From assembly GCA_031409275.1 (NCBI GenBank), contig JANNXA010000007.1, positions 32,001 to 96,000 of the forward strand: 64,000 nt of DNA, given 5' to 3'. The translations under genes and the position numbers were made by a program. The DNA is from Planctomycetota bacterium (GTDB lineage: Bacteria > Planctomycetota > B15-G4 > SIAN01). Positions within the stretch are counted from its first letter, which is position 1. Every line of letters starts with the position of its first letter. The notes beneath the pieces are model-generated. The model was not told the DNA's origin. It saw only the letters and a program-made list of their open reading frames with translations, and ran no database searches. This document shows, piece after piece, positions 49,388 through 63,322 of the stretch.

Positions 49388-50806
49388 TCAGTCGCGGATC
49401 GCGCGATCGGGAAGGTGGCGGACGGGGTCGGTCGCCTGGTCCAACGTGGCGAGCCGCAGCAACGCCAGCGCTTCACCAGCGGCGCCGAGCATCAAGTCGA
49501 CGCTGTCGGCACCGCTGCTCGAGTCGTGCGTCGCGCCGCGCCGCCACTTGAGGCCGTCGCCGTCGGGCACCGCGGCGTGGATCAGATAGTCGCCTGCGCG
49601 TGCGGCGAACGCGGCGTGCTCCGCGCGACCAGTGGCACGATGGAGATCGCAGAAAAAGTCGAGCGCGCCGGCGACGCCGCAGCAGAAGCTCGGCGGGAAT
49701 GCGACCGGTGCGGCACCTCCAGCGGAACCGGCCGCCGCCTCGGCGGGCGCCTGCGCCATCACGAACCGCGCCGACGCCAGCGCGACCTCGAGGAAGCGCG
49801 CTTCGCCCGTCTGCTGATGCAGGAGCAGGAAGAGGCGCGCGGTGCCGGGCGGGCCGTGACACCATCCGCCAAGGGTCGCCTCCGTACCTGCGACCACCGG
49901 CCACGCCAGCCCGTCGCCGCGCGGGATCGAGTTCGCCATCAACCACGCGGCGCCATCGCGAGCCGCACCGGCGCAGTCGGCGTCACCCGTCGCGCCCGCC
50001 ACTCGCGCCAGCGCGTAGGCGACACCCGCCGTGCCGTGGCTGAAGTTGACATAGGGCTGGTTGCCCGCGAGCTGCCATTGCCAGTGGAGCAGGCGCTGAG
50101 TGGCGCTGGGGCGCTCGATCGCCGCTTGCCGGATCAGCCAGCGCGAGGCCGCCAGCGCGGCATCGACGAAGCTCTCCTCGCCGCTCGCGTCGGCGACATC
50201 CAGCAGGAACAGGACCGTGCCAGCGGCGCCGTAGATGATCTCGACCTGTTGGTCCCACCAGAGCTCGTCGCCCTTCCGTACACCGCGCGCGACGATCGAG
50301 TCGCCGACCGCCACGGCCAGCGCCAACGCCTCGGCGTCGTCGCGCAACCGCGCGCGCGCGAGGAACGCCGCGCCAACCCCGGCATCGCCCATGTAGAGCG
50401 ACGTCGCTCCTTCGCGCATGCCATCGGGCATCCACGTCAGCTCGCCCGACGGAGTGAGTTGGCGCGTCGCCAACAGGCCTTTCACGGCGGCATCGGCCAG
50501 CCGCCGCGCGCGCGCATCGCCCAAGACCGCCGCGGCGTTCTCGAGGAAGAGCAGCACGCCGCTGCTTCCGCCGTAGAGCTGCGCACCGAGGTTCGCGCTG
50601 CGCGTCTCCGGATCGACGAAGCGGATCGCCCCTTCTTCACCTTCGATCGGCGCGGCCTGCCGCTCGATCCAGTCGATGGCGCGCACGATGGTGGCGCGCA
50701 CCGGGTCGGTCGCCTGCGCCGTCGGCACCGGCGCGACCTCCTGCGCCGTGAGCGGCGCCAGCAACCATGCGCAGGCGAGGCTGACTCCGATCGTGATCGA
50801 TTGCAT
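49388..50806 (-). CDS. Lanthionine synthetase C-like (LanC/LanCL) protein with a signal peptide
   Basis: Repeated Y/H-G-x-x-G helix-barrel motifs: LYGGSSG, LYMGDAG, IYGAAG, FSHGTAG, WCHGPPG, FCCGVAG, MLGAAG. Confidence 0.88.
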   Translation of the reverse strand: MQSITIGVSLACAWLLAPLTAQEVAPVPTAQATDPVRATIVRAIDWIERQAAPIEGEEGAIRFVDPETRSANLGAQLYGGSSGVLLFLENAAAVLGDARARRLADAAVKGLLATRQLTPSGELTWMPDGMREGATSLYMGDAGVGAAFLARARLRDDAEALALAVAVGDSIVARGVRKGDELWWDQQVEIIYGAAGTVLFLLDVADASGEESFVDAALAASRWLIRQAAIERPSATQRLLHWQWQLAGNQPYVNFSHGTAGVAYALARVAGATGDADCAGAARDGAAWLMANSIPRGDGLAWPVVAGTEATLGGWCHGPPGTARLFLLLHQQTGEARFLEVALASARFVMAQAPAEAAAGSAGGAAPVAFPPSFCCGVAGALDFFCDLHRATGRAEHAAFAARAGDYLIHAAVPDGDGLKWRRGATHDSSSGADSVDLMLGAAGEALALLRLATLDQATDPVRHLPDRAIRD

Positions 50807-51084
50807 TCGGCCGCTCCATTCGTGGGAGGGCGGACGCTACTGCAGCGCTTGACGATTTTCATCGAGCGACTCGACGCACTGCTGCTGCTGGCGTTCGCGA
50901 TCCCGGCGGTGGCGGAGCGCTTCACCGTCGGCTTCGCACCGATCTGCGGTTTCCTGCGCCGGACCATGGGCAGCGCAAACGGCGCCATCGCGTGGCTGTC
51001 GATGTCAGTCGCGCTGTCGTTCGCGTTGTGGGTCGCTTGAGCGGCGTCGTGTCAACGACCGCCAGCGCGCTGACCGCGCCTCGA

Positions 51085-52671
51085 TCAAGCTTTCGGCTTG
51101 GTCGCTGCGGGCGCGGGTGGCACCGCGTCCGCGGTCGCATCGCCGACGACCTTGCCGAAGAACTCGGGCATCTTCACGCCGCCGACATCCTGCATGAGGT
51201 TCATCATCGGCGGGATCGAGCGCGCAAGGCTCTGGAGGAAGCCCGCCGCGCCACCGCTGCCGTCGACGCCCTTGCCCGAATCCCAGACGACGACCTTGTC
51301 GAACTTGATGTTGGAGATCGCGGTCGCCGCGGTCGCCGCCAGCGCCTCGACATGCTCCAGCATCATCATCTGAAAGGCGGGCTGCGCGCCTCCGCACGCA
51401 TCGATGATGCGCTTCAACCCTTCGCCCTTCTTGGCGAGGATCTCGTACTCGCCGCGCGCCTGCGCTTCGAGCTTGGCGTAGAGCCCCTTCGCCTCGCCTT
51501 CCGCCTCGATGCGCGTCTTCTCCGCCTGCGCCTCGGCGTCGACGATCTGCTTCGCCTTCGACGCCTTCGCGACCGCCTCGAACTCGCCGCGCTTCTCCTG
51601 CTCGATCCGCTCGGCGAGCGCCTGCATCGCACGCGCCTCGGCGATGTAGCCAGCCTCGGCAACCGCCGCCTGCGCCTCGCGGTGCTTGGTCTCCGCCGAC
51701 TGGAACGCGGTCGCTTCCTTGATGCGCAGCTCGGCGTTGGTCGCGGCGATCTGCGCTTTCGAGTTGTTCTCGCCCACCACCGCCTTCGCGTTGGCGTCAG
51801 CGATCGCGATGCGCATCTGGCGCTCGCGCTCCTTGACCTGCGCCTCCTGCTCGAACGCCGCGGTCCGCTCGCCGACCGTCTTCTCCTTGGTCAGCTCGGC
51901 GATCTTCACGATCTGGTCGCGCTCGGCCTCCTTGGTGCCGATCTCCTGCAGCTTGCGCGCATTCGAGACTTCGATCGCCTTCACTCGGTCGGCCGCGGCG
52001 ACGCCGATGGCGCCCTTCTTCACCTGCTCGGCGACGTCGATGATCGCCTGCTGGACCGCTTCGCTGGCCGCCTTGCGGCCGATCGCCTCGATGTAGCCCG
52101 ACTCATCCGTGATGTCGGTGATGTTGACGTTGATCAGGACGAGGCCGACCTTCTCGAGCTCGGGTTCGAGCGACTTCTGGATCGCGGCGAGGAACTGGTC
52201 GCGATTGCGATTGATGTCCTCGATGCGCATCGAGGCGATCACCTGGCGCAGCTGGCCGAAGATGATGTCCTCCGTCTGCTTGACGATCTGCGGGATCTGC
52301 AACCCGAGCAGGCGGATGGCGGCGTTCTGCATCGGGACCGGATCGGTGCCGATGGCGACAGTGAACACGCTCGGGACGTTGACGCGGATGTTCTCCGCCG
52401 ACAAGGCGCCCTTCAGCGGGATGCCGATCTGCATCGGCTCGAGGTGGAGGAAGTCGTAGTCCTGGATCAGCGGCCACACGAAGGCGCCGCCGCCGTGCAG
52501 CGTCTTGGCCGAGCGGCCTTCGCTGGTCTTGCCGTAGATGACCAGGATCTTGTTGCTGGGGCAGCGCTTGTAGCGCTTGGCCAGGAGCACGACGAAGCCG
52601 AACAGGATCAGGACAGCGGCGACCACCATCGCGAGGGTGAATGGATTCTGGCCGGCGAGTTCAGGGGGCAT
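51085..52671 (-). CDS. Flotillin / SPFH domain protein
   Basis: N-terminal TM, RYKRCPSNKILVIYG, GGGAFVWPLIQ, LINVNITDITD, long AEA-rich coiled coil. Confidence 0.93.
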   Translation of the reverse strand: MPPELAGQNPFTLAMVVAAVLILFGFVVLLAKRYKRCPSNKILVIYGKTSEGRSAKTLHGGGAFVWPLIQDYDFLHLEPMQIGIPLKGALSAENIRVNVPSVFTVAIGTDPVPMQNAAIRLLGLQIPQIVKQTEDIIFGQLRQVIASMRIEDINRNRDQFLAAIQKSLEPELEKVGLVLINVNITDITDESGYIEAIGRKAASEAVQQAIIDVAEQVKKGAIGVAAADRVKAIEVSNARKLQEIGTKEAERDQIVKIAELTKEKTVGERTAAFEQEAQVKERERQMRIAIADANAKAVVGENNSKAQIAATNAELRIKEATAFQSAETKHREAQAAVAEAGYIAEARAMQALAERIEQEKRGEFEAVAKASKAKQIVDAEAQAEKTRIEAEGEAKGLYAKLEAQARGEYEILAKKGEGLKRIIDACGGAQPAFQMMMLEHVEALAATAATAISNIKFDKVVVWDSGKGVDGSGGAAGFLQSLARSIPPMMNLMQDVGGVKMPEFFGKVVGDATADAVPPAPAATKPKA

Positions 52672-52689
52672 CGATACGTTCTCCTTCGA

Positions 52690-53265
52690 TCAGGGAGCTT
52701 CGAGCGCGGTGACTTCGATGGTGTCGGCGGCGTGCAGCGCAACGACCTTCACGGGAACTCCGGTCGGCAGCGCCGGGCCATGCGAGATCGCCTTCAACTC
52801 GACCGTGCGACCCTGCAGCGCCAGCGTGACCTTGCCGAGCCCTTCGCCGCCGCCCGGCACGCTCAGGTAGACGGTGCCACTCAGTCCGACGGCTCGCTCG
52901 AGGCGGACGTTGCCGCGCGACTGCAGCCGGGCGAGCCCCTTCATCATCCACGCGACTCCGGTCAGCGCGAACGCACCCGCGATCAGCGCGAGGAGGAACC
53001 CGTTGGTGGGATCGACGTGGGACCACTCGCTCGCGAGACCAGCGAGTCCGAAGAAGGTGAGGAAGGCGACGATCGTCTTCAGCGTGAAGAGCTTGACGAA
53101 GACGTCGCCGTCGACATGTCCCTCGCCGGAGTGCCCGGCCTCGTGCGCGTCGTCGAAGCCGCCGTGCGCGTCGTGATGGCCGCCACCGATCAGCGACAGG
53201 AGGGTCTGCAAGACGAGGACGGTGCCGCCGACCGCAGCGCAACCGAAGTAGACGTTCTGGAGCAT
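52690..53265 (-). CDS. NfeD-like membrane protein (flotillin partner)
   Basis: TM segments with a His/Asp-rich loop; C-terminal OB-like GTVYLSVP...GKV...LPTG..VKVV. Directly upstream of flotillin. Confidence 0.85.
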   Translation of the reverse strand: MLQNVYFGCAAVGGTVLVLQTLLSLIGGGHHDAHGGFDDAHEAGHSGEGHVDGDVFVKLFTLKTIVAFLTFFGLAGLASEWSHVDPTNGFLLALIAGAFALTGVAWMMKGLARLQSRGNVRLERAVGLSGTVYLSVPGGGEGLGKVTLALQGRTVELKAISHGPALPTGVPVKVVALHAADTIEVTALEAP

Positions 53266-53385
53266 CGAGTACCCCCAACGCGCGCGCCGTTCGTGCGCGG
53301 GTCGGGCTGGAACCGCGGCGCGAGCGTGGCGCATGCTACTGCGCGACGGAGGGTGCGGTTCGCCGCTCTGGCACGGCCCGCTGCT

Positions 53386-53703
53386 TCAGCGCGTCCGCGC
53401 CGGCTGCGATCCCGACGCGAACAGGGCCTCCAGCAACCCGTGCTGGCCTCCCTGCACGATCAACCACACGCCGCCGGCACCCAACGCCACGTCGAGCGTC
53501 AACGTGATGGGAGTGATGACGATCGCGGTGATCGTCCCGCCATCGGTCCAGTCGATCACGCCGCGCGACTCCTTCGGCAGCTCATTCCAAACGGCGCTGG
53601 TGATGCAGCCCGCCAGCAGAAGCGGTGCAACGACAGCGAACCGGACTGCCGCGCGGCCGGCCGCAGCGAACGAACGCCAGCGACCAATAGAACGCGCGGG
53701 CAT
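53386..53703 (-). CDS. Small hypothetical lipoprotein
   Basis: Lipobox LLAGC and a hydrophobic TPITLTLDV segment. Confidence 0.55.
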   Translation of the reverse strand: MPARSIGRWRSFAAAGRAAVRFAVVAPLLLAGCITSAVWNELPKESRGVIDWTDGGTITAIVITPITLTLDVALGAGGVWLIVQGGQHGLLEALFASGSQPARTR

Positions 53704-53990: not shown

Positions 53991-55265
53991 CTACGGCGGT
54001 GCGCCGCTCTTGCCGCCCGCCTCGCCCGGCCTCTGCACTTCCGCCAGCAGCTCCTTCACCTTCGCCGCCATCGCCTCGTCGCGCAGGTCCTTCGCGCGGA
54101 TCACGCCTTTGGCATCGACGATGTAGATCGTCGGCCAACCGCTGACGTTCCACGCGCTCGCGATCGGGCCCGACGTGTTGCCGCCGTCCCAGAAGCTGCG
54201 CCAGGAGATGCCCTCCTTGACCATCGCGTCGCGCAGCACGTCCTTCGGATCGCTGTTGATGCCGACCAGGGCGAACGGCGCATCCTTCAGTTCAGCCACG
54301 AGCGACCGCTCGTGCGGGATCATGGCCCGGCAAGGGCCTCACCAGAAACCCCAGAAGTCGAGCACGACCACCTTGCCGCGGTAGTCCGACAGCTTGAACT
54401 TCACGCCGTCGAGGTCTTCGCCCTCGATCTCCGGCGCCACCTTGCCGATCTGCAGGTTGCGCAGCTCGAACAGCTGCGCCTCCGCCATCTTCCCGAGCGA
54501 ACCGCGCCGCGGATGCGACACGTCGGCGAACTCCTTCGTCACCTTCTCGAACAGCGCCTCGCTCGCGGCGGTGTCGGCGGCGACGTCGGACTGCTCGAGG
54601 AAGGCGATGAACTCGTCCCCGTAATACTGGCGATAGCTCGGGCCCTGCTCCGCGTCGGCCTTGATGCTCTCCCAGCGTTCGCGCAGGCTCGCGTGGCTGG
54701 CGAGTCGCCACGCCAGCGTGATCGTCGCGAAGCCCTGCACGTCGTGGTGCGGGCTGCTCGCGATGACGGCGCGCAGGAACGGCTCGACCTTCATCGAGTT
54801 GGGGCCGTAGCGCAGCGACCCGATCAGGTCCGCGAGCGCCGGGCTCGCCAGATGGTCGGCCTGCAGCGTGTCGAGGATCTGCTCCGCGACCGCGCGTTCC
54901 TGATTCTGGCGCAGCACCCAGGTGAAGCACTCGATCGCGAGCGGATCGCCCTTCGCCTGCTGCCCGATCGCCAGGATGCGCGGCACGTACTCCGCCGCCT
55001 CGGGATAGCTCTCGGCGACCTTCTGCTTTTCCTCGTCGCTGGTCGCCGCCTTGTAGCGCGCGGAGAAGTCGTTCTGCTTCTTCATGTACTCGTCGCGCAA
55101 CGCGACGAACTGCTCGCGCAACGACTCGACCGTCGTTGCCGCCGCGGCTCGAGCGGCCGGCGTCTCCGCAGCGGGTGCGACCGGAACGGGCGGTGCGCCT
55201 TGTTGGGGAGGCGCGGCAATCGGCACCGCGCACGCCAGCAACGCGCCCTGCATCCATCGAACCAT
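53991..55265 (-). CDS. Exported TlpA/ResA-like thiol-disulfide oxidoreductase; probable selenoprotein (UGA = Sec at 54339-54341, residue 309 of 424)
   Basis: ORFs 54339..55526 and 53991..54323 are the same frame, joined by TGG-TGA-GGC-CCT-TGC (W-U-G-P-C). APEIEGEDLDG...LSDYRGKVVVLDFW precedes it and WNVSGWPTIYIVDAKGVIR follows. AGGAGG SD before ATG 55265. Confidence 0.9.
54297..54338 (-). promoter_or_regulatory. Candidate bacterial SECIS element
   Basis: Directly 3' of the UGA: hairpin GGCCC-TTGCC-GGGCC, then CACGAGC-GGTC-GCTCGTG with a G-led loop 32 nt after the UGA. Confidence 0.7.
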
Positions 55266-55372
55266 CGGCGGGTCCTCCTGCTTCGAATGAACGGTCCGCA
55301 GTATGGCGTCGCGCACCGGTCCGTACACTCGGCGCGCGTCTCCCCTCGATCGCCACCGGAAAGCCGAACTCG

Positions 55373-58252
55373 ATGCCGACACTCGCGATTGCATCCGTCT
55401 ATTTCGGCGTCGTCGCCATGCATGCGCAGGAGGCCCCTCGTCGCATCCGCCTCTTCGATCGCCTGATCGACGAGTCGCCCGCGATCGCGCCCGCCGCGGA
55501 GCCCTCCACCGCGACCTCGCTGGCACTCGGCTTCGAGCCCGACTTCGCGCGACCCGCGTGGCTCGCGCGTCGGATCGGCCGCGACGCCCGCTTCGAGGCC
55601 GGCGCCTGGTCGCTCGCGACGCTGACCGCGGAGAGCGGCGTCACCGGCGGCGCGCTGCGCCTCGGGCCGAACCTGCAAGAGGACGGCAGCTTCCTCTCGT
55701 TCCTCCTCGATGCGAAGCCGCTGACCCGCTACGTGCTGCGCGGCCGCGTCCGGCTCGTCGGCCATCCAGCCCCGGACGAGGCGAGCTCGCGCGAGGTCGC
55801 CCGCCTGCTCGAGCATCTCGGCACGTTCGCCGACCCGAGCCGCTTCGCCCGTTTCGCGCCGACGCTGATCGAGACCCATCGCGCGACCCGGCAGCGCGAC
55901 CCGGGCGACTGGGATCGCTTCGAGATCGAGATCCCGTTGACCAACGCGAGCACCGGCAAGCTCGAGATCCGGCTGCTCCATCGCAGCGGCGGCAGCACCG
56001 AGGCGTCCACGTGGTTCGATGACCTGGTCCTGAGCGAGCAGCCGCTGGCGGACGCCGATGTGCTGGCGGACATGGTCGCCGGACTGCGCGCCACCGATCG
56101 CGACGCCGCCAGCACGCCGTGGCGGTTGCGCGTCACGCTGCCCGACGATGGCGGCGTGAAGGAGACGACGCGCGATGCGGCGCTCCTGCTGCCGGGTCGG
56201 CGACTCGAGTTCGAGCTGGCGCTGCCGGAGGTCGCCGCAGCGCCGCAGTTGCGATTCAGCTACGCGATGTTGCCGGGGTGCTTCGCGATTCCCGGCGACG
56301 GCGCGCGCATCGACGCGCTCTTCACGCCAAGCGACGGGCCGGCGATCGCGCTCGGCTCGTTCCAGTTCGACCCGAAGAACGATCCGACGGAGCGCTGCTG
56401 GTTGCACGCGCGCGTCGACCTGACGCCGATGGCGGGACGCCGCGGCAAGCTCGCCTTCGTCTGCAGCGACGTCGGCGAACCCGATCGCCTCGACGCGGTC
56501 GTCGTGGCCAACCCGCGGATCGAACCGCGCGAGGAGGCGCCGGCCGGCATGAACGTGCTGGTCATCGCTTCGGACACGCTGCGCGCCGATCGTCTCTCCG
56601 CATTCGGCTACGACCGTCCGACCACGCCCAACCTCGAGGCGCTCGCCAGCCACGCGATCCTCTTCATGCAGGCGCGATCGCAAGCGCCGTGGACGCTGCC
56701 GAGCTTCAGCTCCATCCTCACGTCGCAGTACCCGTCCGAGCACGGCGCCGGCCGCGGCGGCCACGACGAATGGACGCCGCTCGCGCCGGGCGTGACGACG
56801 CTGGCCGGCACGCTGGCGCGCGCGGGCTACGAGACGGTCGGCATCACCGCGAACCACCTCATCTCGCCCGACTACGGCCTCGACCAGGGTTTCGAGAGCT
56901 ACGCGGTGCCGGGCGAAGTCGAGTGGCAGCGACTCGGTCTCGAGTCGGTCGAACTCGATGCGCCGCTGGTGGTGCAGTTCCTCGAACAGCACCGCACGAC
57001 GCCCTTCTTCCTCTTCTGGCACTTGATGGACCCGCACCTGCCCTACACGACCGACGCGGCGCTGCGGCGGGAGTTCACCGCCGCCGACTACGACGGCCGC
57101 TTCAAGGGCCGCGATCGCGAGGTGCCGTTCGAAGTGCTCGATCCGCGGCCGGGGCGCCGCTGGTTCACCCACGAGGGGCCGCCCAAGCCGCCGCCGCTCA
57201 CCGTCGCCGATCAGCAATTCGTCAGCGACTACTACGACGCCGAGGTCGCGCAGATCGATCGCGCGATCGGCACCGTGATCGACACGCTGAAGCGCGCCGG
57301 ACTGTGGGAGCGCACGATCGTCGCGCTGGTGGCGGACCATGGCGAGGGGCTCGGCGACCACGGCCACTACCACCACGGTTACACGCTCTTCGACGATCAG
57401 GTGCACATCCCGCTGTTGGTGCGCGTGCCCGGAATGCACGAAGGCAGCAGCCGCGAGGAGCCGGTGCAGTCGATCGATCTGGCGCCGACGCTGCTGGCCG
57501 CGGTGGGGCTGCCGCAGCCGGAGAGCTTCGCCGGCTGCGACCTGCTGGCGCAGCGCGGTCGCGGCGAGCGACCGGTCTTCCTCGAATACCCGAGCTACGA
57601 CAGCTCGGCGGAGAAGGGGCTGCTGCAGGGTCGCTTCAAGTACCTGCACGACCCCTGGTTCCACACCGAGGCGCTCTACGACGTCGTCGCCGATCCCGGC
57701 GAGAAGCGCGACGTGAAGGCCGACCACCCCGACGTCGTCGCCCGCTCGCGCGAGCAGCTCGACGCCTTCCGCTGGGAGCACCTGCAGCGCGGCCGCTTCC
57801 ATCTGCGCGTGCACGGAAAGCCCGGCGCGAAGCTGCGCGTGGCGCTCGCCACCGACGACCTCTTCGATGCCAACTTCGCCGCCCGCCCCGCACCTTCCGA
57901 ACGCGACTTCACGCTCGACCTCGACCGTCGCCACCTCGTGCTCGAAACGACGCTGACGAGCGAGCGATTCGAGCTGGTCTGCTGGTGCCGCGGCAGCGAG
58001 CTGACCCTCGACGTGACGCTGGACGGCGCAGCGCTGGAGCACGGCGTGCGCCTCGGCTCGACGCTCGAGTCGCAGCCGTCGCCGCTGCGGCTCCCGCTCG
58101 CGGCGATTCCCGCGCTCGCGGGCGCGACGCTCGAACCGCCCAAGCGCGGCGAGGCGCTCTTCTGGCTCGAGCCGGGAGGCGGTAACGCGGCTCCGGTCGT
58201 GCCGTCACCCGCCGAGCTCGAATTGCTGCGCAAGCTCGGCTACGCGCACTGA
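55373..58252 (+). CDS. Large secreted sulfatase-like protein with N-terminal beta-sandwich domains
   Basis: NVLVIASDTLRADRL, WTLPSFSSILTS, DPHLPY, ADHGEG, HGYTL; C-terminal LRKLGY. Start position approximate. Confidence 0.85.
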   Translation: MPTLAIASVYFGVVAMHAQEAPRRIRLFDRLIDESPAIAPAAEPSTATSLALGFEPDFARPAWLARRIGRDARFEAGAWSLATLTAESGVTGGALRLGPNLQEDGSFLSFLLDAKPLTRYVLRGRVRLVGHPAPDEASSREVARLLEHLGTFADPSRFARFAPTLIETHRATRQRDPGDWDRFEIEIPLTNASTGKLEIRLLHRSGGSTEASTWFDDLVLSEQPLADADVLADMVAGLRATDRDAASTPWRLRVTLPDDGGVKETTRDAALLLPGRRLEFELALPEVAAAPQLRFSYAMLPGCFAIPGDGARIDALFTPSDGPAIALGSFQFDPKNDPTERCWLHARVDLTPMAGRRGKLAFVCSDVGEPDRLDAVVVANPRIEPREEAPAGMNVLVIASDTLRADRLSAFGYDRPTTPNLEALASHAILFMQARSQAPWTLPSFSSILTSQYPSEHGAGRGGHDEWTPLAPGVTTLAGTLARAGYETVGITANHLISPDYGLDQGFESYAVPGEVEWQRLGLESVELDAPLVVQFLEQHRTTPFFLFWHLMDPHLPYTTDAALRREFTAADYDGRFKGRDREVPFEVLDPRPGRRWFTHEGPPKPPPLTVADQQFVSDYYDAEVAQIDRAIGTVIDTLKRAGLWERTIVALVADHGEGLGDHGHYHHGYTLFDDQVHIPLLVRVPGMHEGSSREEPVQSIDLAPTLLAAVGLPQPESFAGCDLLAQRGRGERPVFLEYPSYDSSAEKGLLQGRFKYLHDPWFHTEALYDVVADPGEKRDVKADHPDVVARSREQLDAFRWEHLQRGRFHLRVHGKPGAKLRVALATDDLFDANFAARPAPSERDFTLDLDRRHLVLETTLTSERFELVCWCRGSELTLDVTLDGAALEHGVRLGSTLESQPSPLRLPLAAIPALAGATLEPPKRGEALFWLEPGGGNAAPVVPSPAELELLRKLGYAH

Positions 58253-58273
58253 CCCGTTCCTGAGGAGCGTCCG

Positions 58274-59041
58274 TTGCCCCACCTGCTGATCTGCGCGACG
58301 CAACGAAGCGGCAGCACGCTCGTCGCCGAGCTGCTGGCGCAGACGGGAGTGGCCGGCTTCCCCGACGAGTTCCTGCTGCTGTGGCTGCGCGATCGGCAGC
58401 GCACGGAAGCGGCGTTCTGGCTCGAGACGATCCAGCGCACCGTCGACGCCGGCATGACGAAGAACGGCGTCTTCAGCTGCAAGGTGATGGCGAACTACTT
58501 CGTCGAGGCGATGGACCTGCTGCGCGCGATCCCCGGTGGCGAGGGACTCGACGCCTGGCAGATCGCGACGCGGGCGTTCGTCGGGCCGCAGGTGATCCGG
58601 GTGCGCCGCCGCGAGCGGCTGCGGCAGGCGATCTCGATCTACATCGCCGAATCGACGGGCATCTACCACATGGCTCGACGCAGCGGGGCGAGCGACCCGT
58701 TCCTGCGCGGCGCGCTGGCGCCGCCGCGAGCCGACCACGGTGGCGACGTCGCCTTCGACTTCGAGCGCATCCGTTCGCATCTCGCCGGGATCGAGACCGG
58801 CGAGCGCTATTGGGACGAGACCTTCGCGCGCCACCACGTGCGCCCCTTCGAAGTGATCTACGAAGAGTTCGTCCGCGATCGCCGCGCGCAGGTGCTGGCG
58901 ATGCTCGACTTCATGCGCGTCACCTACGACCCGGCGCGGATCACCCTCGACGAGCACCTCGACCGCCTCTCGAACGCCACCAACGAGCGCTTCCTCGACC
59001 TCTATCGCGAGGAAGAGGCGCGGCGATCACCACACCTGTAG
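58274..59041 (+). CDS. Stf0/NodH-like sulfotransferase
   Basis: CATQRSGSTL PAPS-binding loop, GFPDEF, TKNGVFSCK, RQAIS, VIYEE. GAGGAG SD and TTG start. Confidence 0.9.
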   Translation: MPHLLICATQRSGSTLVAELLAQTGVAGFPDEFLLLWLRDRQRTEAAFWLETIQRTVDAGMTKNGVFSCKVMANYFVEAMDLLRAIPGGEGLDAWQIATRAFVGPQVIRVRRRERLRQAISIYIAESTGIYHMARRSGASDPFLRGALAPPRADHGGDVAFDFERIRSHLAGIETGERYWDETFARHHVRPFEVIYEEFVRDRRAQVLAMLDFMRVTYDPARITLDEHLDRLSNATNERFLDLYREEEARRSPHL

Positions 59042-59758: not shown

Positions 59759-62700
59759 CTACTGCGCGCCGAGCGACAGCGTCCAGCTGTTCAACTTGCC
59801 GGTGTCGCTTGCGGCGAGGTCCCGCACTTTCAGCGTCCAGTTGCCGGCGATGCTCTTGCCGGTGAAGGCGGAGAGCGAGCCCGCGGGCGCCGTCAGGTCG
59901 GGGTACTCGGTCTGGATGTTGTCGGCCGCTCCGCCGGTGCGATTGTGCAGCAGCACCGTCGTCCCGTCGGGCGCGATCAACGACACCTCGAGGTCGCCCT
60001 TGTAGGTGTGGGTGATGTCGACCTTCACCTTCACGCTGGCCACGGTGCCCGTCTGGCTGAAGGTCATCGGGCTCGACACGCCCGTCGTGTTGTTGTCAGG
60101 AATCGACAGGTTGGGGGCCAGCGACTGCTCGCCGTTGAACGTGATCGTCCACGACACGAGCGTCCCGGTATCCGTCGCCGCCAGGTCGCGCACCTTGAGG
60201 CTCCAGTTGCCCGAGGTGTTCTTGCCGTTGAACGCGGTCAGCGCGGCAAAGGGTGCCGTGGCCACCGCAAAGGTCGTCTTGATGTGGTCGGTCGCGCCGC
60301 CGGTCCGGTTGTGCACGATCACCGTCGTCCCGTCCGGCCCGATCAGCGACACTTCGAGGTCGCCCTTGTAGGTGTGCGTGATGTCGGTGGTCAGCGCGAT
60401 CGACGAGACCGTCAAGCTGTTGGAAACGTTGACCGTGCTGGTCACGCCGGTCGTGTTGTTGTCGGGGATCGCCACGTTCGGCGCGGTGGTGAAGGTCTTC
60501 ACCGGGTTGCCGCCGCCCGTTGCGTTGATGATCAGTTGCACGGTGGTCGAATGGACCAGGGCGCCGCTGGTGCCGGTGATCGTCACCGTGTGCGTGCCGG
60601 TGGTCGCCGTCGGCGTCGTCGTGACCGTCAACGTCGAGCTGCCGTTGGCGGCGATGGGATTCGGCGCGAAGGAGTAGGTCACTCCGCTGATGACCGGAGA
60701 AGCCGCCAGCGAAACGCTGCCAGCGAAGCCGTTGCTGGGCGTGCTGGTCGCCGTGTAGGTCGTCGACTGCCCCTGCGTGATCGTTCGCGAAGCGGGCGTC
60801 GCCGTCAGCGCGAAGTCCGGCGGCGGCGCACCCGCCGTCGCGTTGTAGACCACGAGCGCGAAGTCTTGGTCCGTGGTGTCGGCGTTGCCCGGCACGCCAT
60901 CGCCCGCGATGTTGGTCGCGCGCACGGTGACCGAGATGGCGCCGGTGGTGCCGGCCGGCAGGAAGACGCTCTCGATGTTGTTGCGCAGGTCGGCGCTGCC
61001 GCCGGTGATCGACGTGCCCGCCGTGAAGACGTTGCCGCGATAGAGCGTTCCGTTGACCGTCACCTCGAGGTCGAGGTTGTTGACGTACGCGTTGCCGGTG
61101 GTCGGGCCTGGCGCATCGGTCCACGCCAGCGACACGCGCAGCGGCTGCGCGGAGTTGGCGACGTTGCCGGTCGTGGTGTAGGTGGCGCCGGTCGCGCCGA
61201 GCACCTGCGTCTCGTCGACCGTGATGCGCGACGTGGTGTCGAACGTGCGACCGAGGTCGACGCGGCCGTAGCCCTGATTGTTGGAAGGCAGGGTGTCGTT
61301 CGCGCCGACGCCCGTCATGTAGGCGGTGGTCGAAGTGAGGCACGCCTTCAGCATCGCCGGGCTCGGCGCCGGCAGCCCGTTGTTGAGGAACCACTGGCGC
61401 AGCAACGCGCACGCGCCCGAAATGGCCGGCGTCGAGTGGCTGGTGCCGGATGACCACGCATAGAGCGTCTGTCCGGCCGGCCAGTACTGATTGCAGACGC
61501 CCGAGCCGTTGTAGCCCACGGCGCGGCTCGCGGCGCCCTGGATGTGGGTACCCGGCGCCATGATGTCAGGCTTCTTGCGCGAGTCGGAGGTCGGCCCGCG
61601 CGACGAGAAGCTGATGATGTCCTTCGCGTTGTCCGCGCCCGAGTTCGCGATCGCACAGCCATCGGTGCCGGTGAGGCGGTAGTTCTCCGAGGCGCCGATC
61701 GTGAAGACGTTCTTCGCGGTGCCGGGCGGATGGATGGTCGACGCGCCCGAGCCGTCGTTGCCGGCCGCGAAGACGATCGCCATCGACTGGTTGCCGGCCG
61801 TGCCGCTCACCGAGTCGCGCACCGCCGCGTCATGCGCCTGGCTGTCGCTGTTGTAGGTGGTGCCGCTGGTGTAGCCCCACGAGTTGGACGAGATGCGCGC
61901 GCCGGCGTTCCACGCGTTGGCCATGCGGGTCGGCGTCGATTGATTGAAGACGCCCGCGCCCGCGTTGGAGAAGACCTTGGAGTTGCCGATCTTGACCCAC
62001 GGCGCGACGCCGAGTCCGTAGTTGAAGCCGCTCGCATCTTCGGCGGAGCTGCCAGTGAGATCGTTGTAGCCGCCAATGATCGAGGCGTTGATGTTGCCGT
62101 GGCCAGCCTGGCTGTCGCCGAGCGGGTCGCCCGAGTAGTTGTTGGTGAAGACGAAACGGCTCGCGCCGGTCGACACGCCATCGACGCGGTACTCGACGTT
62201 GATGTCGGTCAGACTGCCCTTGTCGACACCGTCATCCACGACGTCGACCGAGAAGCTGAACGGGTTGGCACCGGCACCCGGAAAGCCGAGTCCCTGCAGC
62301 CAGCTCAGGTAACCCGGTCCGGTCGGCTGCGTGCCCGCCGCGTTCAGGTTGCCCGCCATGATCTGGCCCTGCGCCTCGTCCAACAACATCGCATCGAGCT
62401 TCGGCTCGACCGCGAAGACGTGACTGTCGCGCGCCAGCGCCAGTGCCATCGCACCGCTGGTGTAGAGCTCGACGTTGATGTAGTCGAGCACGCGCCACGG
62501 ATCGCACAGCGACTGCTCGCGCGCGATGAGGCGATCCACAAACTCCTGCCCCTTCGCATCGGCGATCACCTGCACGATGATCCGCTGCAGCGCGTTCTCG
62601 AGCAGGAACGGCGGCCGCAACTCGGGGCGCAGCTTGAATGCCGGCTCGTAGGTGGAAATCGACAGCAGCCAGTCGTTCACGCGCAGCTTGCCGAGCGCCC

Positions 62701-63322
62701 CGTCGGAGAGCGGGTCGGTCACGACCACGTAGGCGTTGCTCGGCAGGTAGGAGACGAGGAAGGCACCGGTCGCGCGCAGCTGGTCGAGCCACGCATCCTT
62801 GACCGGGCCGTCGAACTGGACGATGCGCAGCCGGCGCTCGCCATCCGCGGGCGGCTCGACCGGGCCGCGCAGATCGGCGGGGATCGAGGCGAGGCGCGAG
62901 CGGGTGCCGGGGCGATCGGCGCCGTCCAGCACGAAGCCGTTGATCGGCACCAGCGTCTGCTCATCGGCGAGCTGAGCCCCCGCTGCAAGCCACTGAGCGA
63001 GGCTCAGGTCGAGCGAAGTGTCGACGAGCGCGTAGACGAAGGAGCCGTAGTCCTCGGCGCGCTCGACCGCGACGCTGGTCGCGAGTTGCTCGTGGGCGGA
63101 AGTGCCAAGCGGCGCCAACAAGCGATGGTGGTCGCCCTTCGCGACGAAACCGTCGGGGAGCGCCCCGCCGGTGGTCGCCTGGGCACCGAGCCCGTCCTGA
63201 GTCGACCCGAGGGCGACTCCTTGCGGCGGCGCAGTCGCGACCGCGGGTCTGGAACCAATCAACGGCGCGGCGCCCAACGCCAACAGTGCCGGAATGACCA
63301 ACATTCGCGAATCGCGACGCAT
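59759..63322 (-). CDS. Secreted S8 (subtilisin-like) serine peptidase with two C-terminal proprotein convertase P domains
   Basis: Catalytic D (VVDDGVD), H (GHGNINAS) and S (SGTSHSTP); FAAGND; FSSRGPT. Two IPDNNTTGV...THTYKGDL...GNWxLKVRD repeats. GGAGG SD. Confidence 0.94.
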   Translation of the reverse strand: MRRDSRMLVIPALLALGAAPLIGSRPAVATAPPQGVALGSTQDGLGAQATTGGALPDGFVAKGDHHRLLAPLGTSAHEQLATSVAVERAEDYGSFVYALVDTSLDLSLAQWLAAGAQLADEQTLVPINGFVLDGADRPGTRSRLASIPADLRGPVEPPADGERRLRIVQFDGPVKDAWLDQLRATGAFLVSYLPSNAYVVVTDPLSDGALGKLRVNDWLLSISTYEPAFKLRPELRPPFLLENALQRIIVQVIADAKGQEFVDRLIAREQSLCDPWRVLDYINVELYTSGAMALALARDSHVFAVEPKLDAMLLDEAQGQIMAGNLNAAGTQPTGPGYLSWLQGLGFPGAGANPFSFSVDVVDDGVDKGSLTDINVEYRVDGVSTGASRFVFTNNYSGDPLGDSQAGHGNINASIIGGYNDLTGSSAEDASGFNYGLGVAPWVKIGNSKVFSNAGAGVFNQSTPTRMANAWNAGARISSNSWGYTSGTTYNSDSQAHDAAVRDSVSGTAGNQSMAIVFAAGNDGSGASTIHPPGTAKNVFTIGASENYRLTGTDGCAIANSGADNAKDIISFSSRGPTSDSRKKPDIMAPGTHIQGAASRAVGYNGSGVCNQYWPAGQTLYAWSSGTSHSTPAISGACALLRQWFLNNGLPAPSPAMLKACLTSTTAYMTGVGANDTLPSNNQGYGRVDLGRTFDTTSRITVDETQVLGATGATYTTTGNVANSAQPLRVSLAWTDAPGPTTGNAYVNNLDLEVTVNGTLYRGNVFTAGTSITGGSADLRNNIESVFLPAGTTGAISVTVRATNIAGDGVPGNADTTDQDFALVVYNATAGAPPPDFALTATPASRTITQGQSTTYTATSTPSNGFAGSVSLAASPVISGVTYSFAPNPIAANGSSTLTVTTTPTATTGTHTVTITGTSGALVHSTTVQLIINATGGGNPVKTFTTAPNVAIPDNNTTGVTSTVNVSNSLTVSSIALTTDITHTYKGDLEVSLIGPDGTTVIVHNRTGGATDHIKTTFAVATAPFAALTAFNGKNTSGNWSLKVRDLAATDTGTLVSWTITFNGEQSLAPNLSIPDNNTTGVSSPMTFSQTGTVASVKVKVDITHTYKGDLEVSLIAPDGTTVLLHNRTGGAADNIQTEYPDLTAPAGSLSAFTGKSIAGNWTLKVRDLAASDTGKLNSWTLSLGAQ

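Follow-up and report, generated by a model that had tools for sequence, protein, structure and literature searches.

Introduction

The 2008 Global Ocean Sampling (GOS) survey described 'Prx-like 1' selenoproteins (pfam00578), which carry selenocysteine (Sec, U) in a UxxC motif (PMC2398784). Here we report on a gene of related type, located on the reverse strand of a 64,000-nucleotide stretch of DNA from a Planctomycetota bacterium (contig JANNXA010000007.1, positions 32,001 to 96,000; hereafter the window). Very probably its in-frame UGA is decoded as Sec within one continuous gene, and the product is a thiol-disulfide reductase of the TlpA/ResA fold, likely exported, in which a U-G-P-C active site follows an N-terminal domain predicted to be helical.

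A published selenoprotein dataset of 2008 already includes this subfamily in its Sec form. Dataset S1 of the GOS survey contains two reads with U (JCVI_READ_1092963397103 and JCVI_READ_1095366023744) that share W-U-x-P-C...P-H-E-R-S-L-V and its flanks with the window protein, a likeness judged by eye on unaligned sequences (PMC2398784). In that file both reads come after the 'Prx-like 1' heading and before the 'Prx-like 2' heading, and their class is taken from this position. JCVI_READ_1095366023744 also has a helical-looking stretch ahead of its catalytic domain, as does the window protein. The GOS class takes in a broad range of fragmentary sequences, and the accessible parts of the survey do not describe for it a leader followed by a 235-aa helical domain and a TlpA fold, an invariant selenocysteine insertion sequence (SECIS), or planctomycete paralog expansions.

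Other UxxC selenoproteins have been tabulated, including a Prx-like thiol:disulfide oxidoreductase (PF00578), a redoxin (PF08534) and a cd02966 thiol-disulfide isomerase-like protein (PMC13188914, Table 1). Compared by description only, the window protein has in common with the redoxin/cd02966-type selenoproteins a TlpA-like domain with UxxC, while the 'UGC-containing TlpA' entry differs from it in motif (UGC rather than UGPC). For planctomycete P1, Table S9 of PMC4807772 gives IMG gene pairs, split and annotated as thiol-disulfide isomerase-like thioredoxin or peroxiredoxin, with Cys forms in Singulisphaera acidiphila as their closest hits; two of the entries carry the remark that they lack a SECIS. 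Singulisphaera likewise carries homologs of the window gene without an active-site TGA. The P1 candidates are listed there without sequences and are possible members of our subfamily. Compared with ResA of Bacillus, TlpA of Bradyrhizobium and CcmG/DsbE, the window protein has Sec in place of the first Cys and a large helical domain, and it has no membrane anchor, no conserved partner genes nearby and scores far below the NCBIfam cut-offs (ResA 67.3 against 170 bits, TlpA 51.2 against 230, DsbE 37.3 against 123). We found no paper naming the subfamily together with planctomycetes, although subscription papers and supplements may do so.

Results

The gene and the Sec machinery of its genome

A single reverse-strand frame runs from an ATG at 55265 to a TAG ending at 53991 and encodes 424 residues with TGA read as U. 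Codon 309 is its sole in-frame TGA, in the context DFWGFW-U-GPCRAMIPHERSLV (DFWGFW-U-GPCRAM), and 115 sense codons follow it. Under translation table 11, the TGA closes an open reading frame (ORF) at 54339..55526, and the remainder becomes a 110-aa ORF (53991..54323) starting at the internal Met315. The original prediction had placed the TGA at the first Cys of a WCxxC motif, with the same frame continuing through the rest of a TlpA fold and a strong Shine-Dalgarno sequence ahead of a 424-aa gene that callers would split; each of these points was confirmed (Table 1). A promoter and terminator scan returned none on the gene's strand. The in-frame UGA is predicted, with near certainty, to be decoded as Sec.

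Table 1. Features of the predicted selenoprotein gene, in window coordinates
Feature	Position	Strand	Basis
Full gene, TlpA/ResA-like thiol-disulfide oxidoreductase with N-terminal helical domain, 424 aa with predicted Sec at 309	53991..55265	-	sequence, Pfam, model
Shine-Dalgarno AGGAGG, 8 nt ahead of ATG	55274..55279	-	sequence
Likely signal peptide, roughly residues 1-17 with an inferred end, then a linker rich in Pro/Ala and of low model confidence up to about residue 35	55215..55265	-	hydropathy, homolog leaders, pLDDT
N-terminal domain of helices only (residues 36-270); weak fold matches suggest a solenoid	54456..55160	-	Pfam, model, Foldseek
Segment adjoining the helical domain on its C-terminal side	54033..54455	-	Pfam and fold searches
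In-frame TGA, predicted selenocysteine 309, position 1 of U-G-P-C	54339..54341	-	sequence, homolog loci, contigs
Cys312, likely resolving residue of UxxC	54330..54332	-	sequence; nearly invariant in alignment
SECIS-type hairpin, 7-bp stem, GGUC tetraloop 54307-54304, loop 31 nt past UGA, encodes H-E-R-S-L-V	54297..54314	-	sequence, homologs
Pro378 of W-P-T	54132..54134	-	nearly invariant in alignment

The selA, selB, selC and selD genes implied by such a reading were all found, above curated model cut-offs, in the 5.6-Mb genome (92.9% complete). SelA (contig C40) scored 484 bits against a cut-off of 268, SelB (C29) 334 against 242, SelD (C40) 338.5 against 125, and a tRNA-Sec with a TCA anticodon (C40:205341) 76 against 47. 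SelD has an in-frame TGA of its own (SCAG-U-AAK). The genome also encodes four further full-length paralogs of the window protein: TGA occupies the same column in three of them (C7:113526-112414, C47 and C9), and TGC does so in the fourth (C37). The selA and selD genes are adjacent (G000:C40:252211-254558, reverse strand), and selB and selC lie elsewhere. Other TGA-x-x-C sites in thioredoxin-like contexts mark candidate selenoproteins at G000:C16:170423 (forward strand; SFRTW-U-GPC), C50:48182 (reverse; FVRGFW-U-PFC) and C27:33213 (reverse; YAT-U-PTC).

TGA and Cys codons alternate among homologs

We compared 85 loci, 55 from named genomes and 30 from relatives and the organism's own genome, with the window gene and one paralog included. 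Cys was counted from DNA loci only, and database proteins showing C at the site were excluded since tools convert U to C. A strict motif pattern gave 79 hits in 75 of the 85 loci and nothing in the other ten; two false hits of a looser, earlier pattern (L039:4091 and L063:5684) were dropped. In the active-site column there were 56 TGA, 22 TGC or TGT and one TGG, which bears out the Cys/UGA alternation that had been proposed as a check. The TGA occurs in Planctomycetota, Verrucomicrobiota and further relatives. The TGG (Trp) belongs to a second copy in L060 (3833), which lies beside a TGA copy and has no hairpin, and three loci (L030, L036 and L103) have two TGA copies side by side. Seven database proteins (P0004, P0011, P0017, P0023, P0026, P0042 and P0051) begin with text resembling MYPHERSL, end at DFWGxW, or both, and have further domains; these are likely tandem or multi-Sec forms split by gene callers.

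Of the 46 genomes, among those of the 55 named loci, that were searched for SelB, 25 had TGA loci, and 23 of these scored above the cut-off, as did 15 of the 21 others. One of the two TGA genomes that missed, G007, has SelA. SelB is present in 38 of 40 relatives; SelA, intact or fragmented, occurs in the remaining two. Five of the six SelB-negative genomes in the group of 21, two complete Singulisphaera chromosomes among them, yielded 22 homolog matches, and not one had an active-site TGA: 20 had no stop, and two had TGA as the terminal stop and WCGPC at the site. A quick, unfinished tree search over 140 columns needed six changes for Cys. Because its starred branches force only two, we claim no direction or number of Sec/Cys switches.

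RNA-level constraint on the core of a SECIS-type hairpin

The hairpin that follows the TGA agrees with all four constraints of the published bacterial SECIS model, namely a loop of 3-9 nt with G in its first two positions, a stem of 4-16 bp, a distance of 16-37 nt from the UGA and a minimum free energy <= -7.5 (PMC13188914); this result comes from our own scan against those criteria. It is like the E. coli fdhF-type model (Fig. 2A of that paper) in its 4-nt loop, 7-bp stem, G first in the loop and 31-nt spacing. Unlike that model, the core in the window family is invariant letter for letter across two phyla, which fixes the H-E-R-S-L codons. The energy is approximately -11.9 kcal/mol for a 24-nt segment, computed on the identical segment in L050. 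The GGUC loop presumably matches the fdhF loop.

The comparative evidence came from within the genome and from homologs. A GGUC hairpin lies 31 nt past the UGA in all four TGA copies of the genome, and the Cys paralog has none. In 5.6 Mb there are four copies of the exact 17-nt core, all lying 27 nt past the active-site TGA of a family gene, and the core was found in 46 of 56 TGA homolog hits versus none of 22 Cys hits. Across the 46 TGA genes that encode HERSLV, the residues H, E, R, S and L each have a single codon, in contrast to the variable codons of adjacent Gly, Pro and Val; the genes were picked solely for encoding HERSLV, and related genomes are not independent. Judged from these codons, the fixation of HERSL is an RNA-level constraint.

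Protein architecture

An export-like leader had been predicted, and it stood in part: Arg3 is followed by a hydropathy peak that reaches 2.6 over eight residues (9-16), and the likeness to signal peptides is only moderate. Leaders are alike in most full-length TGA homologs. The predicted local distance difference test (pLDDT) score is about 50 over residues 1-30 of the structure model, and the best 19-residue hydropathy of 1.23 indicates a soluble leader rather than a membrane anchor. We consider export of the protein probable, with good confidence.

The N-terminal domain expected at about 250 aa is indeed helical in the model (mean pLDDT 91.7), and its size is 235 aa (residues 36-270). No Pfam family was matched in this domain of the window protein. 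As to a HEAT/ARM/TPR relationship, HEAT_2 was matched in 2 of 91 aligned family members, and a Foldseek search with a moderate model of the domain (pLDDT 64) gave no match at E<=0.001 (best E 0.08).

In the structure model the helical domain is joined to a ResA/TlpA fold. Pfam AhpC-TSA (PF00578) scored highest, at 75.1 bits (cut-off 26) over residues 273-398, followed by Redoxin (PF08534) at 60.5 bits (cut-off 26.6); both matches span the TGA, and PF00578 was matched by all 91 aligned family members. The model and fold searches gave the traits of TlpA-like proteins (cd02966), that is, a thioredoxin fold with an N-terminal extension and insert, a WCxxC-type site and a cis-proline, which we take to be Pro378. 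The best structural and profile matches were ResA, TlpA and DsbE-type proteins. No NCBIfam model exceeded its cut-off for the window protein; the WAxxUGC_long selenoprotein family (NF041054) scored 35.6 of 300 bits, and with UGPC rather than UGC the protein is not a member. The true-peroxiredoxin site PxxxTxxU is not present, the sequence being W-U-G-P-C.

Discussion

Our results support the original prediction of a selenoprotein. Several observations weigh against this interpretation. One TGA genome, G010 (a 3.1-Mb assembly), yielded neither SelA nor SelB, and SelB presence alone discriminates weakly because so many genomes without TGA loci carry SelB too. Folding of the wider region against shuffled sequences gave z-scores of -0.03 to -1.64, none significant, so the case for the hairpin rests on comparison. 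Since the hairpin core is invariant, there are no compensatory changes that support its pairing. Ten of the 56 TGA homologs do not have the exact core: one carries a GGUC hairpin close to the core and the other nine lack such a hairpin, which is therefore not universal in the family. With regard to export, the leader of the window protein is short.

The nine hairpin-less TGA homologs are L080, L081, L084, L086, L087, L089, L091, L092 and L096. Three SelB matches above the cut-off were found in each of G063, G066 and G069, which host three of these homologs, and two in each of G057, G058, G060, G074 and G082. Multiple SelB genes and an alternative decoding signal for these homologs are a lead to be followed.

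With Sec as the predicted residue, what does the enzyme do? Our analysis leans somewhat toward a role as a periplasmic reductase fed by DsbD. By established SelB biology, SelB-GTP-Sec-tRNA would bind the GGUC hairpin in the mRNA and insert Sec309, and in the absence of selenium translation would halt after 308 residues. In the exported enzyme, following TlpA/ResA chemistry, the Sec309 selenolate would attack a client disulfide or oxidised cysteine, Cys312 would resolve the mixed bond to leave a Se-S ring, and DsbD would re-reduce this ring with cytoplasmic electrons. Choosing or holding clients would fall to the helical domain. A DsbD is encoded in the genome (G000:C51:106506, reverse strand, locus L105), with DsbD_TM above its cut-off and two alpha-like domains. 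Because its C-terminal thioredoxin domain reads LNFTGFT-TGA-INC, with TGA at the first Cys and 91 codons continuing after it, this DsbD is probably a selenoprotein with UxxC as well. The hairpin downstream of the DsbD TGA is unlike the GGUC type.

Conservation of neighbors within 3 kb of the 55 loci was absent, the largest clusters being four to six mostly closely related loci; no dedicated pathway is therefore indicated, and with neighbors not conserved our best guess is general repair or protection of exported proteins. The same selenoprotein could instead serve as a cytochrome c maturation partner (ResA/CcmG-like), a disulfide isomerase or a donor to a periplasmic peroxidase. We regard such a job as unlikely, though a serious contender: ResA, TlpA and DsbE-type proteins as top matches and AhpC-TSA as the top family speak for it, whereas the sub-threshold NCBIfam scores, the lack of any kept neighbor, the missing peroxiredoxin motif PxxxTxxC and the soluble-type leader without a membrane anchor speak against it. 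Met315 also occupies the position of ResA Glu80, numbered by spacing from CxxC, which we count on the same side.

A still more elaborate arrangement, which we offer as speculation, is a selenium-wired periplasmic relay. Here a Sec-DsbD would feed four Sec-TlpA paralogs that pick clients by helical solenoids; the SECIS RNA, not the protein, would fix the sequence of an active-site helix; and the hairpin-less UGA clade, partly in genomes with three SelB-like genes, would use a different decoding signal.

Some bacteria read UGA as Cys non-canonically, and the second L060 copy has TGG in this column. Nevertheless, insertion of Cys or Trp by a suppressor or non-canonical tRNA is very improbable here: the TCA-anticodon tRNA on C40 is a strong match to the tRNA-Sec model, the 10 matches to that model do not include a low-stringency ARAGORN 'SeC' call on C22, both SelA and SelD are intact, and two paralogs use TGA as an ordinary stop codon. 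The reading as a nonsense mutation, a sequencing error or two genes (one for a helical protein of 308 aa, the other for a half-thioredoxin of 110 aa that restarts at Met315, with GAGG 13 nt ahead of it) is largely refuted and has next to no probability; the halves are separate in databases (P0003, P0006 and P0112 end at DFWGFW, and P0017, P0026 and P0051 start at MYPHERSL), but the same TGA recurs in all 56 hits across phyla, the break would fall inside a single domain that is folded in the model, and the active-site TGA is absent from the SelB-negative genomes. Sequencing error in particular is set aside because contigs of three runs (X1, X3 and X4, all of one study, X1 possibly being the source of the assembly) show no differences over the TGA letters at 54339-54341, and because P0003, 87% identical, terminates at the same DFWGFW.

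For selenoprotein biology, the outcome is chiefly an annotation correction, in that a widespread planctomycete and verrucomicrobial family is stored as two fragments in public protein sets; the known list of selenoprotein kinds is unchanged. The invariant GGUC hairpin, confined as it is to TGA genes, lends itself as a clean natural test of how SelB recognizes its signal, and a multi-copy, likely exported selenoenzyme with a probable Sec-DsbD offers a testable system for selenium use outside the cytoplasm. The probable Sec-DsbD partner, the helical N-terminal domain and the hairpin-less TGA homologs are leads worth keeping.

Neighboring genes in the window

Counterparts of the window neighbors were not seen beside homologs, except for generic sulfatases in four loci. 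Downstream of the gene, a same-strand run (49388-53703, reverse strand) encodes a 105-aa protein with a leader that is lipoprotein-like by eye, a 214-aa membrane protein without a Pfam hit, a flotillin/SPFH protein and a stand-alone LanC-like protein. On the other side, the regions 55376-59041 (forward strand) and 59759-63322 (reverse strand) encode a divergent large sulfatase, then a Stf0-type sulfotransferase and, further on, a subtilase carrying two P-domains.
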